Below, one piece after another: positions 15,642 to 22,491 of a stretch of 64,000 nucleotides of DNA (position 1 is the stretch's first letter; the number at the start of each line of letters is the position of its first letter). Origin of the DNA: Escherichia phage vB_EcoM_Lutter; the sequence record NC_054924.1; one strand, 5' to 3'. Made by a program: the position numbers and the translations under genes. The notes below the pieces were generated by a model. The model saw only the letters and a program-made list of their open reading frames with translations, ran no database searches and was not told the origin of the DNA.

Positions 15642-16031
15642 TTAATCCAAAATATTATTAGGCATTGGTTGAACACTCGCAAGTTCTTTAAAGAACTCAG
15701 TAGAGTCAGGTAATTTAACCATTTCCGGAGCATGCTTACTAAATTTATGTTTGCAATGACGGCATTTATATTCAAGTTCCGGTTTACGCCAGTTAATCAA
15801 TTGAACTTGTTCAGTACCGCATTCAGGACAATTAGGAACGTTTTTAGAAGCCCTTTCGCGACGTTTAACCATAACCATAATAGCATCCCAGGCTGGAGGT
15901 TTAAAATCTAAATCATCACAACCATGAATCTTTCCGCGCATTTCCAGATCGTCTTCTTCACCAGCCATAATAATTTTAATTAGACTGGAATTACTTGAAG
16001 CTGCAATATCTTCTAATAGACGCTTTTTCAT
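15642..16031 (-). CDS. zinc-ribbon protein (129 aa)
   Basis: CPECG...CRHCKH four-cysteine motif. Confidence 0.5.
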
Positions 16032-16957
16032 TTCAATACCTCAATAGCATTACGTAAACCATTTGCTTTTGCATTAAGAGCTTTTAACAATTTAGTGTGT
16101 TCGGCAATCTGAGCTTCAACTTCAACTAGTCGAGATTTGAGGTATTCACGTTCTTCGCTCAAGTTATCAATCTTTTCTACTTTAGGCTCTTTTACAACTG
16201 TCTTATATGTATTAGGGTTCTTCAGTTTAATTAAAATGCGTGAACTGTATAACATTGAACCATTATCTTCGGTTTCGTCATACATTTCTACTACGTCCAT
16301 GATTTTTAACATCATGCGGAGTTTATAAGATAACGAACGAATAGTTTTGTTGTGCTTATTAATTTCTCTAGAGTTCATGGTGCCGAGATTACGTGAGTAA
16401 TAATAAGGAACCTGGATATTAATTAATACTGATGAACCACCTGGCTTGTGTGTTACTTCATCAGCAATAACCCAATCCTTAACATGAACTGTATTTGTAC
16501 GGTCATCGCCCGCGGTAAATAGTTTGCGAGCATGCTTAAAAAGCATATTCACTTGGTCATTGAATTGACAAGCAAATTTATCAGCAAATTTAGTTTCAGG
16601 AATGGTAGATAACCAATCAGCCAAATGGGTCTTTTTAACATCGTTAACAATAGTAAATTCAACCAAATCAGTTATAGATGTCTCAGATTTAATAAAGCTC
16701 GGCTTCATAAAGTTTTTAATGTTATCGCGAGCTACAGTAGAAGATAACATACGAGAACGTTTAAACCATTGAAGCAAATTGCCCAACGAATGAGAATAAG
16801 CGTTTTGAGTATCTTTACAGATATGATTTTCCTGGCCAACATATTGAAGGAAATCACGAAGAATATTATTGATTACTGCTCTGTGTCCGATCTGATAATT
16901 ACGGTGTTTAGTAATAAGACTGTCAAAATAATCAATATAATGTTTACGAGTTTTCAT
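16028..16957 (-). CDS. hypothetical protein with C-terminal coiled coil (array member 1)
   Basis: 309 aa; C-terminal heptad-rich helix. Confidence 0.55.
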   Translation of the reverse strand: MKTRKHYIDYFDSLITKHRNYQIGHRAVINNILRDFLQYVGQENHICKDTQNAYSHSLGNLLQWFKRSRMLSSTVARDNIKNFMKPSFIKSETSITDLVEFTIVNDVKKTHLADWLSTIPETKFADKFACQFNDQVNMLFKHARKLFTAGDDRTNTVHVKDWVIADEVTHKPGGSSVLINIQVPYYYSRNLGTMNSREINKHNKTIRSLSYKLRMMLKIMDVVEMYDETEDNGSMLYSSRILIKLKNPNTYKTVVKEPKVEKIDNLSEEREYLKSRLVEVEAQIAEHTKLLKALNAKANGLRNAIEVLK

Positions 16958-17009
16958 GTTCTTCTCACTTGGTTAATGATTTATACTCCGAGCCATCCTT
17001 GGCTTTAAA

Positions 17010-18011
17010 TTACTTAATTAACTGTAAAGCTTGTTCCAGACGATCAAGACGATTAACAGATTCTTCCCAAATCCTTTTAGCCTGCTCATATTCTTTCTGC
17101 GCTTTATTAGAAATTTCTAGAACTTCTTTATAAGCTTTTTCTAGTGCAATAACTTCTGGACGAATTTCTACCGGTTCAGGTGAATCGTCAAGACATTCCA
17201 TTAGTTCCTCAAGGGTAGTTTCTTCTTTAGGAGTATTCACAATTTCATCACATTTTTGTTGGTAAATTTCTTTATCAGTAGGTGAATAAGCACATTTCAC
17301 TTCACGAAGACTAATTACAATTTTATATCCTTCCCAACCGCATATATTCTTAAAAGGATAAGTATGAATATTTTCTACTGTTTCCATACAAAGTAATGCG
17401 GTCTCTAATTGACGAGTTATAGTGCTAGCAATTGAGAAAAATTTATTAATATTCTTTTGGTTAGTTTCTGGTGTAAAAAATCCATAATTCACAAAAATAG
17501 ATACTTTATTTTTATCAAGTTCATATTCTTTTACGATAATCATATCAGAAGCCAAAGGATGAATTTGACGATAATCGCCATAACATAATTTAGAAGCTGA
17601 TTTTAGAATCTGTCCTTTGAAAAGTCTGAAATTACTAATCCAACGACGAGTAAAAATATTCTCAGGGTCTTCTTTATTATTAAGATGATAAGAATTAACA
17701 TCACCGAACCAATTATATCCTACTACATCTTTAGTTCGTTTAATTTCTTTCCCAAAATTACCAAGAATATCCCGATTAACCAAATATGAAAGAAGACGAG
17801 ACTCTTTAAAGGTTTTCTTGATAACATCTTTATCTACACGACTAGAAATTTTACGAATTTCATGAATAAATTTAGTAGAAGAAACAATACTTGCATCAAC
17901 ACTATTGAGCCATTGATTGATAATAGAAAGAACGATATTTTGACCAAACATCGGTATAGCTTTATCATCAATAACGCTATTGAATGATTTGATATATTCG
18001 TTACGAGTCAT
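17010..18011 (-). CDS. hypothetical protein with C-terminal coiled coil (array member 2); start trimmed to MTRNEY
   Basis: Track ORF extended over the upstream promoter; GAGGAG ribosome-binding site before ATG at 18011. Confidence 0.55.
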   Translation of the reverse strand: MTRNEYIKSFNSVIDDKAIPMFGQNIVLSIINQWLNSVDASIVSSTKFIHEIRKISSRVDKDVIKKTFKESRLLSYLVNRDILGNFGKEIKRTKDVVGYNWFGDVNSYHLNNKEDPENIFTRRWISNFRLFKGQILKSASKLCYGDYRQIHPLASDMIIVKEYELDKNKVSIFVNYGFFTPETNQKNINKFFSIASTITRQLETALLCMETVENIHTYPFKNICGWEGYKIVISLREVKCAYSPTDKEIYQQKCDEIVNTPKEETTLEELMECLDDSPEPVEIRPEVIALEKAYKEVLEISNKAQKEYEQAKRIWEESVNRLDRLEQALQLIK

Positions 18012-18039
18012 ATTAATCTCCTCAGTAGAAAGTAAGAGC

Positions 18040-18068
18040 ATTATACCACATCCTTGTGGCAAAGTAAA
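18040..18068 (-). promoter_or_regulatory. early promoter
   Basis: TTTACT-17-TGG-TATAAT upstream of coiled-coil gene 2. Confidence 0.6.
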
Positions 18069-19094
18069 CTAGTTCAGTGCATTTAGTGCATTGTTCAGTT
18101 TAGAACGTTGCTTTGTCAGATTTTGAACCCTTGACTGAGCTTGTTTTAACACCTTTTCAGCTTCTAGCACTTCATTAGTTGCTTTAACGAGTTCATCATC
18201 TACTGCCTTAAGAGACTTCTCAATCGCATCCGCGTGCCATTTTTCAACAGGTTTAAGACTCGGATTTTCAACAGGAAGAAAATTCACTTTATTGAATTTC
18301 CATGCATCTTTATTACCTGAACTATACATCCAAAATTTAGGATCGTTTGATAAGTAATTGGATAAATTTAAATTTAAGTTATCTTGTACTTCCTGCTTTT
18401 TCTCTTGCGGGACTTCGTCCTTTCTCAAAAATTCATATTTAAATGAAACGATCATATCAAGTTCATATGATGTTGTATCTAACTTAAATCGTTCAAAACG
18501 AGGTAAAATCTTAGATTGAACAGCAGCAACAACATCCATATACTTAAATGCTTCTGTCAACTGTGATTTAAGGCATTCACAAATTGAAAGAGAATTTTTT
18601 GTATTAGGTTTAAAGCTAATTCGTGCAGTTCTATTATTTTCTTTTAACGGTCTTACTTCCATCTGAAGAGTATAACCATCAAATTTCAGGTTCTTTAAGT
18701 TAATATCAGAACCTTTTAATCGACTAGCAGTAGACAAAATTTGCTTTAATTGTTTACGGAATAGAGCAATAAATCTCCATTCAAGACGATAATGATTTGG
18801 ATTGAAAAATCCAGATGATAAATCAACCTTACTTTGACCAACGCCTTGAACAAATAGAGGATTTTTATAATCAATAGTTTTACAGAAATCGGTGAGCTGC
18901 TCACGAGCAGTCATTTGTGTAATATACCCAGCTTTACTAAAATGACGTAACCATTCACTGCTATTCATATACTTAAAGTGAATATCACGATTAACTTTAT
19001 CAGGGTCTAAATTATTTTGGCACAAAAATGTCATAACATCACGAGTATAGCTGGCATTACGAACCATATCTTCAATTTGAGAACGAGTTTTCAT
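18069..19094 (-). CDS. hypothetical protein with C-terminal coiled coil (array member 3)
   Basis: 341 aa. Confidence 0.55.
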   Translation of the reverse strand: MKTRSQIEDMVRNASYTRDVMTFLCQNNLDPDKVNRDIHFKYMNSSEWLRHFSKAGYITQMTAREQLTDFCKTIDYKNPLFVQGVGQSKVDLSSGFFNPNHYRLEWRFIALFRKQLKQILSTASRLKGSDINLKNLKFDGYTLQMEVRPLKENNRTARISFKPNTKNSLSICECLKSQLTEAFKYMDVVAAVQSKILPRFERFKLDTTSYELDMIVSFKYEFLRKDEVPQEKKQEVQDNLNLNLSNYLSNDPKFWMYSSGNKDAWKFNKVNFLPVENPSLKPVEKWHADAIEKSLKAVDDELVKATNEVLEAEKVLKQAQSRVQNLTKQRSKLNNALNALN

Positions 19095-19102
19095 GGTGTT
19101 CC

Positions 19103-20005
19103 TTAAGATTTAAGTAAATCAACAATTTTAATTAATTTTTCACGCTCAGATTTAGCTTTACTACTCAATCCAGATAGTCTGAAAATTTCATCGTCATACT
19201 GTTGAATAGAAATATTCAGCTCTTCAATTTGCTTATTAAAATAATCAATTTGCTCAGAATGTTTTTCATTACTGCGAACTGGTACAGGTTTTGTAGGCAA
19301 TTTAGTTAAACTGGATTCATCCGGGCGATAAATTAAAATACAACTTGAACCAATCGGGCATTTAGCACCAGACACATATTCTAATGTTCCGGCTTCTTTT
19401 AAAACTTCAAAAGCTAAACAGAGATGATGCCCCATATTAACATAATCTGTAGAGCGAGCTCTGACGTAATAATCATCGCCGCGAATACTAAATTTAAAGC
19501 ATTTAAGGTCTTCTGTATTATTGGTCTTAAAAATCATTTGTTTATCTAGACCTTTAGCTAATCGAGCGCCTAATGCTAATAATCGTCGTTGATTTTCCCA
19601 CAAATCTGCGATCATTTGGTCAAATGATAATTTCGGCATTAGTCGACCGTAAAGATCATAGCCTTTATTATAATTGCGAAGAATTTCACTTGCATTAATA
19701 CGAGACAATGCTCCAATTTTATTAAGGGCTTTCATAATGCGATTAGATAAACCCATTCCAGACCCGTTTGTTCGCTGCAAATGTTTTTCTAATCCAAATC
19801 CAATATCAACTTTAAATTTATCTAAAATTTCAGCATGAACATCTCTGTCAATAACATTCAAATCCAAAGTTGGGTTAAATCTATGAAAAAATTTATCTGG
19901 CTCTCCACGACGAAGTACAGTCCATTCATTTAATTTTTTATTAGCTAAAGATTTAATTACTGCATTGACATTATTAATTACTACTGACATATTTTCCTCA
20001 CTCAA
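19103..20005 (-). CDS. hypothetical protein with C-terminal coiled coil (array member 4)
   Basis: 300 aa. Confidence 0.55.
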   Translation of the reverse strand: MSEENMSVVINNVNAVIKSLANKKLNEWTVLRRGEPDKFFHRFNPTLDLNVIDRDVHAEILDKFKVDIGFGLEKHLQRTNGSGMGLSNRIMKALNKIGALSRINASEILRNYNKGYDLYGRLMPKLSFDQMIADLWENQRRLLALGARLAKGLDKQMIFKTNNTEDLKCFKFSIRGDDYYVRARSTDYVNMGHHLCLAFEVLKEAGTLEYVSGAKCPIGSSCILIYRPDESSLTKLPTKPVPVRSNEKHSEQIDYFNKQIEELNISIQQYDDEIFRLSGLSSKAKSEREKLIKIVDLLKS

Positions 20006-20467: not shown

Positions 20468-20995
20468 TTATGCGAGTACCGTCTTTAACCGTTCTTCAAA
20501 CTTCCGAAGAGTATTCTGGCGTTCAGCTCTTTGCTTTTTGTAAGTTTCAATACGCTCTGAAATGAGAGTGTATCGTTCATTTACTGATTCTTTCATAAAA
20601 TCAGGAATTTCACGAGAAGATTTAATCTCGTCAAATTTATCAATAACAGCTTGCTCTTCAGCAATTAAGTTATCATACATCAAAATATCTTTCTTGATGA
20701 ACTCAATATCTTCTTGAGTTACACGAGATAATTTAGATGCTTTATCCTTTTTGTACTGTTCATTAGTATCACGAGACCAGTGTAATGTACGATTTTTATT
20801 CGTATTTTTGTAAATTTCTACAATACCGATCTCATCAATAATAACGATCCAATTCCAACGAGATTTGTAAATTTGCCCTCCATCAACCGTGATTTCACCT
20901 CCGATTGAGATGTCATTAAAGAACTTGCTTTGTGCTTCAGATTTAAATTTACCATCATTGTAGTTTACCAAGTTGAAAATATCTTTAGCATTCAT
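20468..20995 (-). CDS. hypothetical protein; start trimmed to MNAKDIF
   Basis: Track ORF reads through the promoter motif; GGAGG ribosome-binding site before ATG at 20995. Confidence 0.5.
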   Translation of the reverse strand: MNAKDIFNLVNYNDGKFKSEAQSKFFNDISIGGEITVDGGQIYKSRWNWIVIIDEIGIVEIYKNTNKNRTLHWSRDTNEQYKKDKASKLSRVTQEDIEFIKKDILMYDNLIAEEQAVIDKFDEIKSSREIPDFMKESVNERYTLISERIETYKKQRAERQNTLRKFEERLKTVLA

Positions 20996-21023
20996 TTTCT
21001 GTTCCTCCGTAGTTGATAGTTGT

Positions 21024-21052
21024 ATAGTACCACAGAGGAACGGTCTTGTAAA
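21024..21052 (-). promoter_or_regulatory. early promoter
   Basis: TTTACA-17-TGG-TACTAT, then conserved ACAACTATCAAC. Confidence 0.6.
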
Positions 21053-21459: not shown

Positions 21460-22428
21460 TTATTTCAGAAGAGTAACCTCAGCGATTTCTTGCCAACCGT
21501 TTTTGTCGGTCATAATAAAGTCAGCAAGATAAAGTGCAGTACGCAGTGAAACATTGCGTAAACGGTTAACATTGACTTTCATCCATGATAATGCTTTATA
21601 AGTTTCTTCATCAGAAAGACCGCGCTTTTGCATCATGTCGGTTGAAAGAATAACATCTTCAACCCTGACCATAATTTCTTCATTAGTGTGAACACCCAAA
21701 TCTAAATAAACTGAGCGGGACACTAACGCTTGTAAGTGTGGGGCAAGTTTAGTACCACGGTCTAATTCGCGGTCAATGTCAACGTTTGTGATAAAAACAA
21801 TCGTTCCTTTAAATTCAAACTCACGCTCAATGTCTTTTTCTTCTAAGTAAGAAGATGCAGTGCTCCAGCAGACTTTACGGGTCTCTCCGGTGTCCAGAGC
21901 GGCTTTTAGAAGATTAAGAATGTCCATATCAGAGAAAACATCCACATCATCAATCAAAAGGACAGAATTCTCTTCACGATTATTCCAGAGCTGTTCATAA
22001 AGACCAATACCAGAGATTTTACCGTTAATGCTTTTATATTCAATGTATCCATTATCATTTGCTTTATTCAAAGCTTTATCTAAAGAATACGTTTTACCAA
22101 TACCCGCCGCACCAGAGATAATTAATGAACGAATGTTTCCGTTAATAATACCATTCGTCATCATTCCCATAACATTAAATCTTTTATTAATGCGGGTTTT
22201 CATATCTTCATATGATTCTTTAACTTCTTCAACTTTTACACCATCATATGAAATGTCTGATTTGTAAACCCAAACACCGCGACGTTTACCGTCAATTTCA
22301 ACAAAAACTTTACCATCTCCTTGTGCATCTACCGGAGCATTATCTGGGAACCATTCGCCTAAGAGCTCAAAAGTTCCAGAGATTTCTTTACCGAAGTAGA
22401 TACCCTTATTGATAGTTACAGTTTTCAT
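21460..22428 (-). CDS. P-loop ATPase (AAA-like); start trimmed to MKTVTINKG
   Basis: Walker A GAAGIGKTYS, Walker B VLLIDDVD. Confidence 0.6.
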   Translation of the reverse strand: MKTVTINKGIYFGKEISGTFELLGEWFPDNAPVDAQGDGKVFVEIDGKRRGVWVYKSDISYDGVKVEEVKESYEDMKTRINKRFNVMGMMTNGIINGNIRSLIISGAAGIGKTYSLDKALNKANDNGYIEYKSINGKISGIGLYEQLWNNREENSVLLIDDVDVFSDMDILNLLKAALDTGETRKVCWSTASSYLEEKDIEREFEFKGTIVFITNVDIDRELDRGTKLAPHLQALVSRSVYLDLGVHTNEEIMVRVEDVILSTDMMQKRGLSDEETYKALSWMKVNVNRLRNVSLRTALYLADFIMTDKNGWQEIAEVTLLK

Positions 22429-22462
22429 TTTATTCTCCAAATCCGTATCAGTTGATAGTTGT

Positions 22463-22491
22463 ATAGTACCACAAAGCTCTATGCTTGTAAA
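22463..22491 (-). promoter_or_regulatory. early promoter
   Basis: TTTACA-17-TGG-TACTAT; follows a terminator hairpin. Confidence 0.6.

Follow-up and report, generated by a model that had tools for sequence, protein, structure and literature searches.

A 64,000-nucleotide stretch of Escherichia phage vB_EcoM_Lutter (NC_054924.1), referred to here as the window, carries a tandem array of four minus-strand genes, nrdC.3, nrdC.4, nrdC.5 and nrdC.6. Profile comparison and bridging sequences show, with some support from a structure search, that their products are full-length paralogs of one superfamily. One member, NrdC.5, is the ortholog of a T4 protein that overcomes the host defence Dsr1. The favoured reading, with a probability put at roughly 0.55, is that these tandem paralogs are expressed early as non-enzymatic inhibitors of host anti-phage defences, each tuned to a different target. 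The genes and one function were known beforehand; the single superfamily, the domain-level picture of variation and the natural copy-number variants are new.

The original prediction of four consecutive minus-strand genes is confirmed at the level of the open reading frames (ORFs), with products of 309, 333, 341 and 295 amino acids (aa). An annotated relative and T4 itself identify them as NrdC.3, NrdC.4, NrdC.5 and NrdC.6. The matches to the T4 families, phrog_1435 and PF26897 for NrdC.3/NrdC.4 and phrog_2257 and PF26899 for NrdC.6, are full-length and the gene order is kept.

16028..16957, minus strand: nrdC.3-type paralog, 309 aa; phrog_1435, expectation (E) value 2.7e-116 (residues 2-309).
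17010..18011, minus strand: nrdC.4 paralog, 333 aa; phrog_1435, E 6.1e-169 (residues 1-333).
18069..19094, minus strand: nrdC.5 paralog, 341 aa; Pfam DUF7235 (PF23882), E 4e-121.
19103..19990, minus strand: nrdC.6 paralog, 295 aa; phrog_2257, E 9.3e-152 (residues 6-300).

Over the 4.2 kb around the array the sequence matches Escherichia phages slur03, slur08 and slur14 at 100% identity and numerous further Tequatrovirus genomes at 96-99%, and the source phage is placed by sequence within Tequatrovirus. Identity to the T4 orthologs is 96-98% for nrdC.4, nrdC.5 and nrdC.6 (98% for NrdC.4 and 96% for NrdC.5), with nrdC.3 present as a diverged allele at 60%. The match of NrdC.5 to DUF7235 covers residues 1-341 with a score of 404.5 bits (cut-off 30), and the gene lies between nrdC.6 and nrdC.4 as in T4. 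Precomputed Pfam assignments give PF26897 for the nrdC.4 homologs and PF26899 for the nrdC.6 homologs. The longest nrdC.6 ORF begins at TTG 20005; the alternative ATG at 19990 is preceded by a GAGG Shine-Dalgarno sequence and agrees with the annotated NrdC.6 (296 aa), making it the likelier start. Within the window the superfamily model matches only the nrdC.3-nrdC.6 ORFs. The array had been put forward as an uncharacterised module, a description that does not wholly hold, since these are named T4 genes and an anti-defence phenotype has been published for one of them.

The relationship between the four proteins is remote, the other three being paralogs of NrdC.5 at 15-25% identity. Direct BLASTP links only nrdC.3 and nrdC.4 (E 2e-8, residues 3-224 with 2-213), five of the six pairs being non-significant, and hhalign matches the same two proteins with a probability of 98% and E 4e-13. 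First-pass family profiles for the remaining pairs are borderline (E 1e-3 to 0.08). Widened, independently aligned profiles compared with hhalign give E 3e-9 for the combined nrdC.3 and nrdC.4 families with nrdC.5, 3e-6 for the same combination with nrdC.6 and 6e-8 for nrdC.5 with nrdC.6, values that carry a mild ascertainment bias because the widening sequences came from the merged superfamily profile; reversed-sequence controls stay at E 0.18 or above. The joint alignment is colinear, with a first shared motif, F.[KR]S[RG].[LI]S....[AN]R[DE].L..F.K, and a second, A[SR][RK]L..GD, followed by a P.PV linker and a terminal QR.KL..A[LI]..LK.

Bridging proteins connect the families further. P0234 (Klebsiella phage F48 gp057) has matches to the models of nrdC.4, nrdC.5 and nrdC.3, and four further proteins (P0235, P0239, P0243 and P0246) match those of nrdC.6, nrdC.5 and nrdC.4 colinearly in the globular part. 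In the PHROG library P0234 matches phrog_26858 (1e-137), phrog_2351 (4e-11) and phrog_1435 (2e-9), whereas P0235 and P0246 match phrog_26858, phrog_2257 and phrog_2351; the nrdC.4 and nrdC.5 proteins of the array each match phrog_26858 weakly. Searched with a profile, a set of 1.84 billion representative proteins yields 28 clusters in all. The match to P0241, a bacterial-type repeat protein of 597 aa, was rejected as spurious, its E of 1e-5 arising through three short repeat stretches.

The AlphaFold model of nrdC.4, built from the merged superfamily alignment of 63 sequences, has a predicted local distance difference test (pLDDT) score of 84 and a predicted template modeling (pTM) score of 0.68. 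Searched with Foldseek against BFVD, this merged-alignment model gives 19 matches at E <= 1e-3 to uncharacterised proteins of 155-374 aa, and those with names all belong to T4-like phages (Escherichia, Yersinia, Klebsiella, Enterobacter, Acinetobacter, Pectobacterium, Erwinia and Serratia). The matches include the JS10 nrdC.6 (E 3e-5, probability 1.00) and an nrdC.3-sized protein (E 4e-8), with template modeling (TM) scores of 0.3-0.47. The nrdC.5 model from its own 13-sequence alignment has a pLDDT of 43 with only the terminal helix confident, so that no nrdC.5 model is usable for fold searches. By these comparisons the superfamily is restricted to the T4-like phages (Straboviridae and relatives). 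The databases hold phrog_1435/PF26897, phrog_2257/PF26899 and DUF7235 as three separate families, the first two as hypothetical proteins; here they form one superfamily, and it is suggested that Pfam DUF7235, PF26897 and PF26899 be joined in one clan.

That the four genes are unrelated, alike only in size and in a generic coiled-coil tail, would account for the five non-significant BLASTP pairs. It would also fit the lack of any significant match among the families when the profiles are confined to the last 55 residues, so that the shared tail pattern is descriptive only and homology rests with the whole proteins. The globular parts are nevertheless linked by profile-profile comparison, bridging sequences, the PHROG library and structure search, which makes this explanation extremely improbable. 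The proposal of tandem paralogs therefore stands, whereas that of a different N-terminal domain in each fails, the N-terminal and middle parts being homologous by BLASTP, hhalign and bridging proteins, with Foldseek suggesting the same. None of the four belongs to an unrelated characterised family.

A layout common to all four proteins consists of a helical N-terminal part, an α/β middle, a proline-containing linker and a terminal helix. The AlphaFold model of nrdC.4 divides as follows.

nrdC.4 residues 3-84: helical N-terminal part.
nrdC.4 residues 88-110: three-stranded β meander.
nrdC.4 residues 119-148: helices with the second motif.
nrdC.4 residues 158-235: β-β-α-β-β unit.
nrdC.4 residues 246-259: short helix.
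nrdC.4 residues about 260-284: low-confidence linker.
nrdC.4 residues 285-332: terminal helix.

The C-terminal heptad helix claimed for each protein is borne out. All four tails are poor in proline and glycine, and of 2000 shuffles that preserve composition only 0-10 equal the hydrophobic contrast of the a and d positions over the last ~42 residues. In the AlphaFold predictions nrdC.5 and nrdC.4 each end in one long helix, and heptad periodicity along an unbroken helix of this length would fit a coiled-coil oligomer. The corresponding codons are the following.

16031..16180, minus strand: nrdC.3 C-terminal heptad helix, about aa 260-309; 10/2000 shuffles.
17013..17159, minus strand: nrdC.4 C-terminal helix, aa 285-333; predicted by the AlphaFold helix and the heptad test.
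18072..18251, minus strand: nrdC.5 C-terminal helix, aa 282-341; AlphaFold helix 282-340 with pLDDT 79-91; 0/2000 shuffles.
19106..19258, minus strand: nrdC.6 C-terminal helix, about aa 245-295; 0/2000 shuffles.

Within families, conservation is among the highest in the helices of motif 1 and in the terminal helix, which also ranks with the best-conserved segments between families. Conservation between families is lowest (12-13%) in the β-β-α-β-β unit and the first helices, and the same segments vary most within the nrdC.4 family. Columns with one shared majority residue across the four families are limited to two lysines and three leucines, so that no catalytic residue stands out.

The functional evidence comes from T4. 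A T4 clone with compensatory deletions lost the ability to plate on ECOR17, and deletion of the host dsr1 restored plating (Srikant et al. 2022, eLife, PMC9391042). In MG1655 carrying dsr1, T4 nrdC.5 expressed from a plasmid restores plating of the deletion phage (PMC9391042). NrdC.5 is the only T4 protein known to defeat Dsr1. The sensor of Dsr1 is reported to be a tetratricopeptide repeat (TPR) domain recognising major capsid proteins (2026 preprint, PMC12803255). The neighbouring gp49.2 blocks OLD (PMC13096335) and the neighbouring nrdC.1 blocks Septu (bioRxiv 10.1101/2025.11.20.689424), so that the region acts like an anti-defence island. The two genes share the early accessory region with the array and encode small proteins that likewise lack recognisable domains; they are unrelated in sequence to the four paralogs and much smaller. 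A possible functional analogy exists with DSAD1 of phage SPbeta, which is reported to bind DSR2 directly and to suppress its NADase: in both cases a phage protein blocks a defence sirtuin, although the target of DSAD1 is DSR2 and the phage is a different one. A full-text literature search for DUF7235, PF26897, PF26899 or "anti-Dsr1" found nothing, and in full text only four papers name any of nrdC.3-nrdC.6.

The makeup of the array varies in nature. With tblastn, among 50,697 phage records, nrdC.3 is found in 652, nrdC.4 in 552, nrdC.5 in 580 and nrdC.6 in 740, essentially always as a single copy of each gene per genome. A search of viral contigs for related loci yielded 7 loci, and the number of paralogs per array among relatives ranges from 1 to 4. 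In Klebsiella phage F48, P0234 is the sole family member detected in the surrounding 13 kb, and a glutaredoxin gene lies four genes away. Three-gene Tequatrovirus arrays occur on the IMG/VR contigs L005 and L006 (4925-7948), whose proteins share 79% (nrdC.3-like), 26% (nrdC.5-like) and 32% (nrdC.6-like) identity with those of the window, differences indicating that the paralogs are exchanged or diverge independently. Phage LYE-01 has lost nrdC.4: in its third gene (L011 4996-5922) the promoter, ribosome-binding site and ATG of nrdC.4 are joined precisely to residue 3 onwards of nrdC.3. The junction runs through ACTCGTAA, which the M(K)TR starts have in common, and ATGAAAACTCGT occurs at the start of nrdC.3 and again at that of nrdC.5 (16946-16964 and 19083-19101); the common M(K)TR start of the paralogs provides microhomology for such deletions. 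Other variants are a frameshifted nrdC.4 in one contig, a chimeric database protein joining nrdC.5(146-270) to nrdC.3(136-309), an nrdC.6 of Shigella phage Sf25 in which about 83 aa are duplicated internally in tandem, and short database proteins with the nrdC.5 or nrdC.6 tail alone on unrelated N termini, one being a protein of 173 aa with the nrdC.5 tail helix. The family members with natural rearrangements are the database proteins P0056, P0121, P0238 and P0232 and the locus L003 5916-6948.

These variants bear on the idea that the four paralogs form one hetero-oligomer through their C-terminal helices and serve a single function. The terminal helix pattern is conserved among the paralogs, the segment ranks with the best conserved within and between families, and the genes are co-transcribed neighbours, as such an assembly would predict. 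Copy numbers from 1 to 4 with independent loss of members argue in the opposite direction, as does the complementation of the deletion phage by plasmid-expressed nrdC.5 alone, and a single four-part complex is considered improbable.

The allele of nrdC.3 shows where variation is concentrated. Identity to T4 in successive 30-aa bins is 90, 87, 63, 40, 57, 47, 50, 40, 40, 73 and 100%, so that residues about 90-270 are 40-57% identical between ends of 73-100%. Contrary to the suggestion of diversifying N termini, the N-terminal parts are one diverged domain, and the α/β middle rather than the N terminus as such varies most.

In the favoured explanation the α/β middle and the N-terminal helices, the most variable parts, would recognise the target, the conserved pair of helical motifs would form a scaffold, and the conserved C-terminal heptad helix would mediate oligomerisation and thereby raise avidity. 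The family most likely comprises stoichiometric inhibitors of host defences; we infer this role for nrdC.3, nrdC.4 and nrdC.6, and the mechanism for all four, in which the proteins would act by direct binding and oligomerise through the helix. The paralogy with nrdC.5, which disables Dsr1, makes the other three good candidates for action on other host defences. The prediction of counter-defence effectors accordingly holds for nrdC.5 through the T4 protein (PMC9391042) and extends to its three paralogs as a probable role.

Several points weigh against this explanation. The experimental phenotype concerns one of the four genes, through a T4 protein 96% identical to the allele of the window, and the effect of nrdC.5 on Dsr1 could be indirect. 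The coiled coil is only suggested, a monomer model with one long helix being no proof of it. The differences in conservation between segments are modest, and nrdC.4, nrdC.5 and nrdC.6, at 96-98% to T4, are not obviously "diversifying" within Tequatrovirus.

Alternatively, the proteins could be general host-takeover or housekeeping modulators, that is, basic coiled-coil early proteins that remodel the nucleoid, transcription, proteolysis or nicotinamide adenine dinucleotide (NAD) metabolism, with the effect of nrdC.5 on Dsr1 a by-product. Three of the four proteins are basic at isoelectric points (pI) of 9.2-9.4 (nrdC.3 9.4, nrdC.4 6.5, nrdC.5 9.4, nrdC.6 9.2), the genes lie in an early transcription unit, and Pin, an inhibitor of the Lon protease, is encoded nearby. 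The genes of the array are, however, dispensable, with frequent loss, fusion or frameshift, loss of nrdC.5 matters specifically on the Dsr1 host, and the adjoining genes are specific defence inhibitors; a general modulator role is judged rather unlikely.

The searches agree with the claim that the four proteins contain no enzymatic motif. Family proteins searched against Pfam, NCBIfam, PADLOC and PDB sequences match no enzyme or defence family, with no match above the cut-offs in PADLOC and NCBIfam. The superfamily profile finds only coiled-coil noise among PDB sequences (best E 0.02), and Foldseek gives no significant match in the PDB. An XerD/SAM-like match at nrdC.3 residues 30-86 was rejected (E 1e-3, 18 bits compared with a cut-off of 279). 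Acidic DNA mimicry of the anti-restriction type (Ocr/ArdA) was also rejected on the isoelectric points given above. Many deposited T4-like genomes call the nrdC.3-nrdC.6 homologs "thioredoxin", a label that seems to have been taken over from the gene name nrdC.x. A thioredoxin or glutaredoxin assignment was discarded: none of the 63 family members has such a Pfam match, and there is no CxxC in the four array proteins.

A more speculative possibility concerns the α/β middle, which may resemble a tail terminator of the lambda gpU type. The proteins would then be decoys built on a structural-protein fold, made early and occupying host sensors of phage structural folds. The middle domain would derive from or mimic a tail terminator, and the coiled-coil-oligomerised paralogs would each plug the fold-recognising, TPR-type sensor of a different pattern-recognition defence of the host (such as Dsr1 or Avs-like systems). 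The scores for this likeness lie in a grey zone and find no support from Foldseek on the PDB or from Pfam. The nrdC proteins also differ from tail terminators in being early, about 300 aa long and equipped with extra helical parts and a predicted coiled-coil tail. The decoy idea, in both its general and its sensor-plugging form, is a long shot; if it were true, the plugging of sensors would precede the appearance of the genuine late structural proteins, and specificity would be retuned by tandem duplication and by exchange of the middle domain as a cassette.

Under the defence-inhibitor reading, three "hypothetical" and often mislabelled genes become concrete candidate inhibitors of other defence systems. 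The variable α/β middle and the constant terminal helix are the parts to swap or delete, and the arrays of one, three and four genes that occur in nature, together with the nrdC.3 allele classes, provide ready material for mapping specificity.

An early promoter had been claimed in front of nrdC.4, and it is supported by the match and by its conservation in T4, where the sequence is identical except for one base downstream of the -10 element; it is also kept in phage LYE-01.

18040..18068, minus strand: T4-type early (σ70) promoter before nrdC.4; TTTACT, 17 nucleotides (nt), TATAAT, with an upstream TG; 10/12 positions match.

The nrdC.4 start at ATG 18011 is preceded by a strong GAGGAG Shine-Dalgarno sequence and lies 3' of the promoter -10 element, and the other, upstream ATG falls inside that element. 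Promoter blocks like that of nrdC.4 stand before nrdC.8 and nrdC.10 and share a 27-nt repeat. The two copies of this block (21011-21037 and 22450-22476) are 96% identical and 1439 nt apart. The minus-strand promoter-like sites 21052-21024 (nrdC.8) and 22491-22463 (nrdC.10), each TTTACA-17-TACTAT with a TG, span the block, which also produces look-alike N-terminal extensions (..LCGTIQLST..) in mechanical ORF calls. The T4 late promoter consensus is TATAAATA, and the spacer between nrdC.4 and nrdC.3 (16958-17009) has TATAAATC, which resembles it; a short imperfect hairpin adjoins.

The array is flanked by nrdC.2 and nrdC.7, with nrdC.8-nrdC.11 upstream and nrdC, gp49.x, pin and endonuclease VII downstream. 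The nrdC.2 homolog (15642-16031, minus strand) has 129 aa compared with 104 aa in T4, is 80% identical to the T4 protein across the first 100 residues and then continues into a different, longer C terminus; it contains a zinc-ribbon-like pair, CPEC...CRHC. The changed C terminus of nrdC.2 next to the diverged nrdC.3 indicates a mosaic block at nrdC.2/nrdC.3. The product of nrdC.8 (20468-20995) has a heptad-like terminal helix (2/2000 shuffles) and no profile similarity to the four paralogs, and nrdC.10 (21460-22428) encodes a Walker-A-like GAAGIGKT motif.

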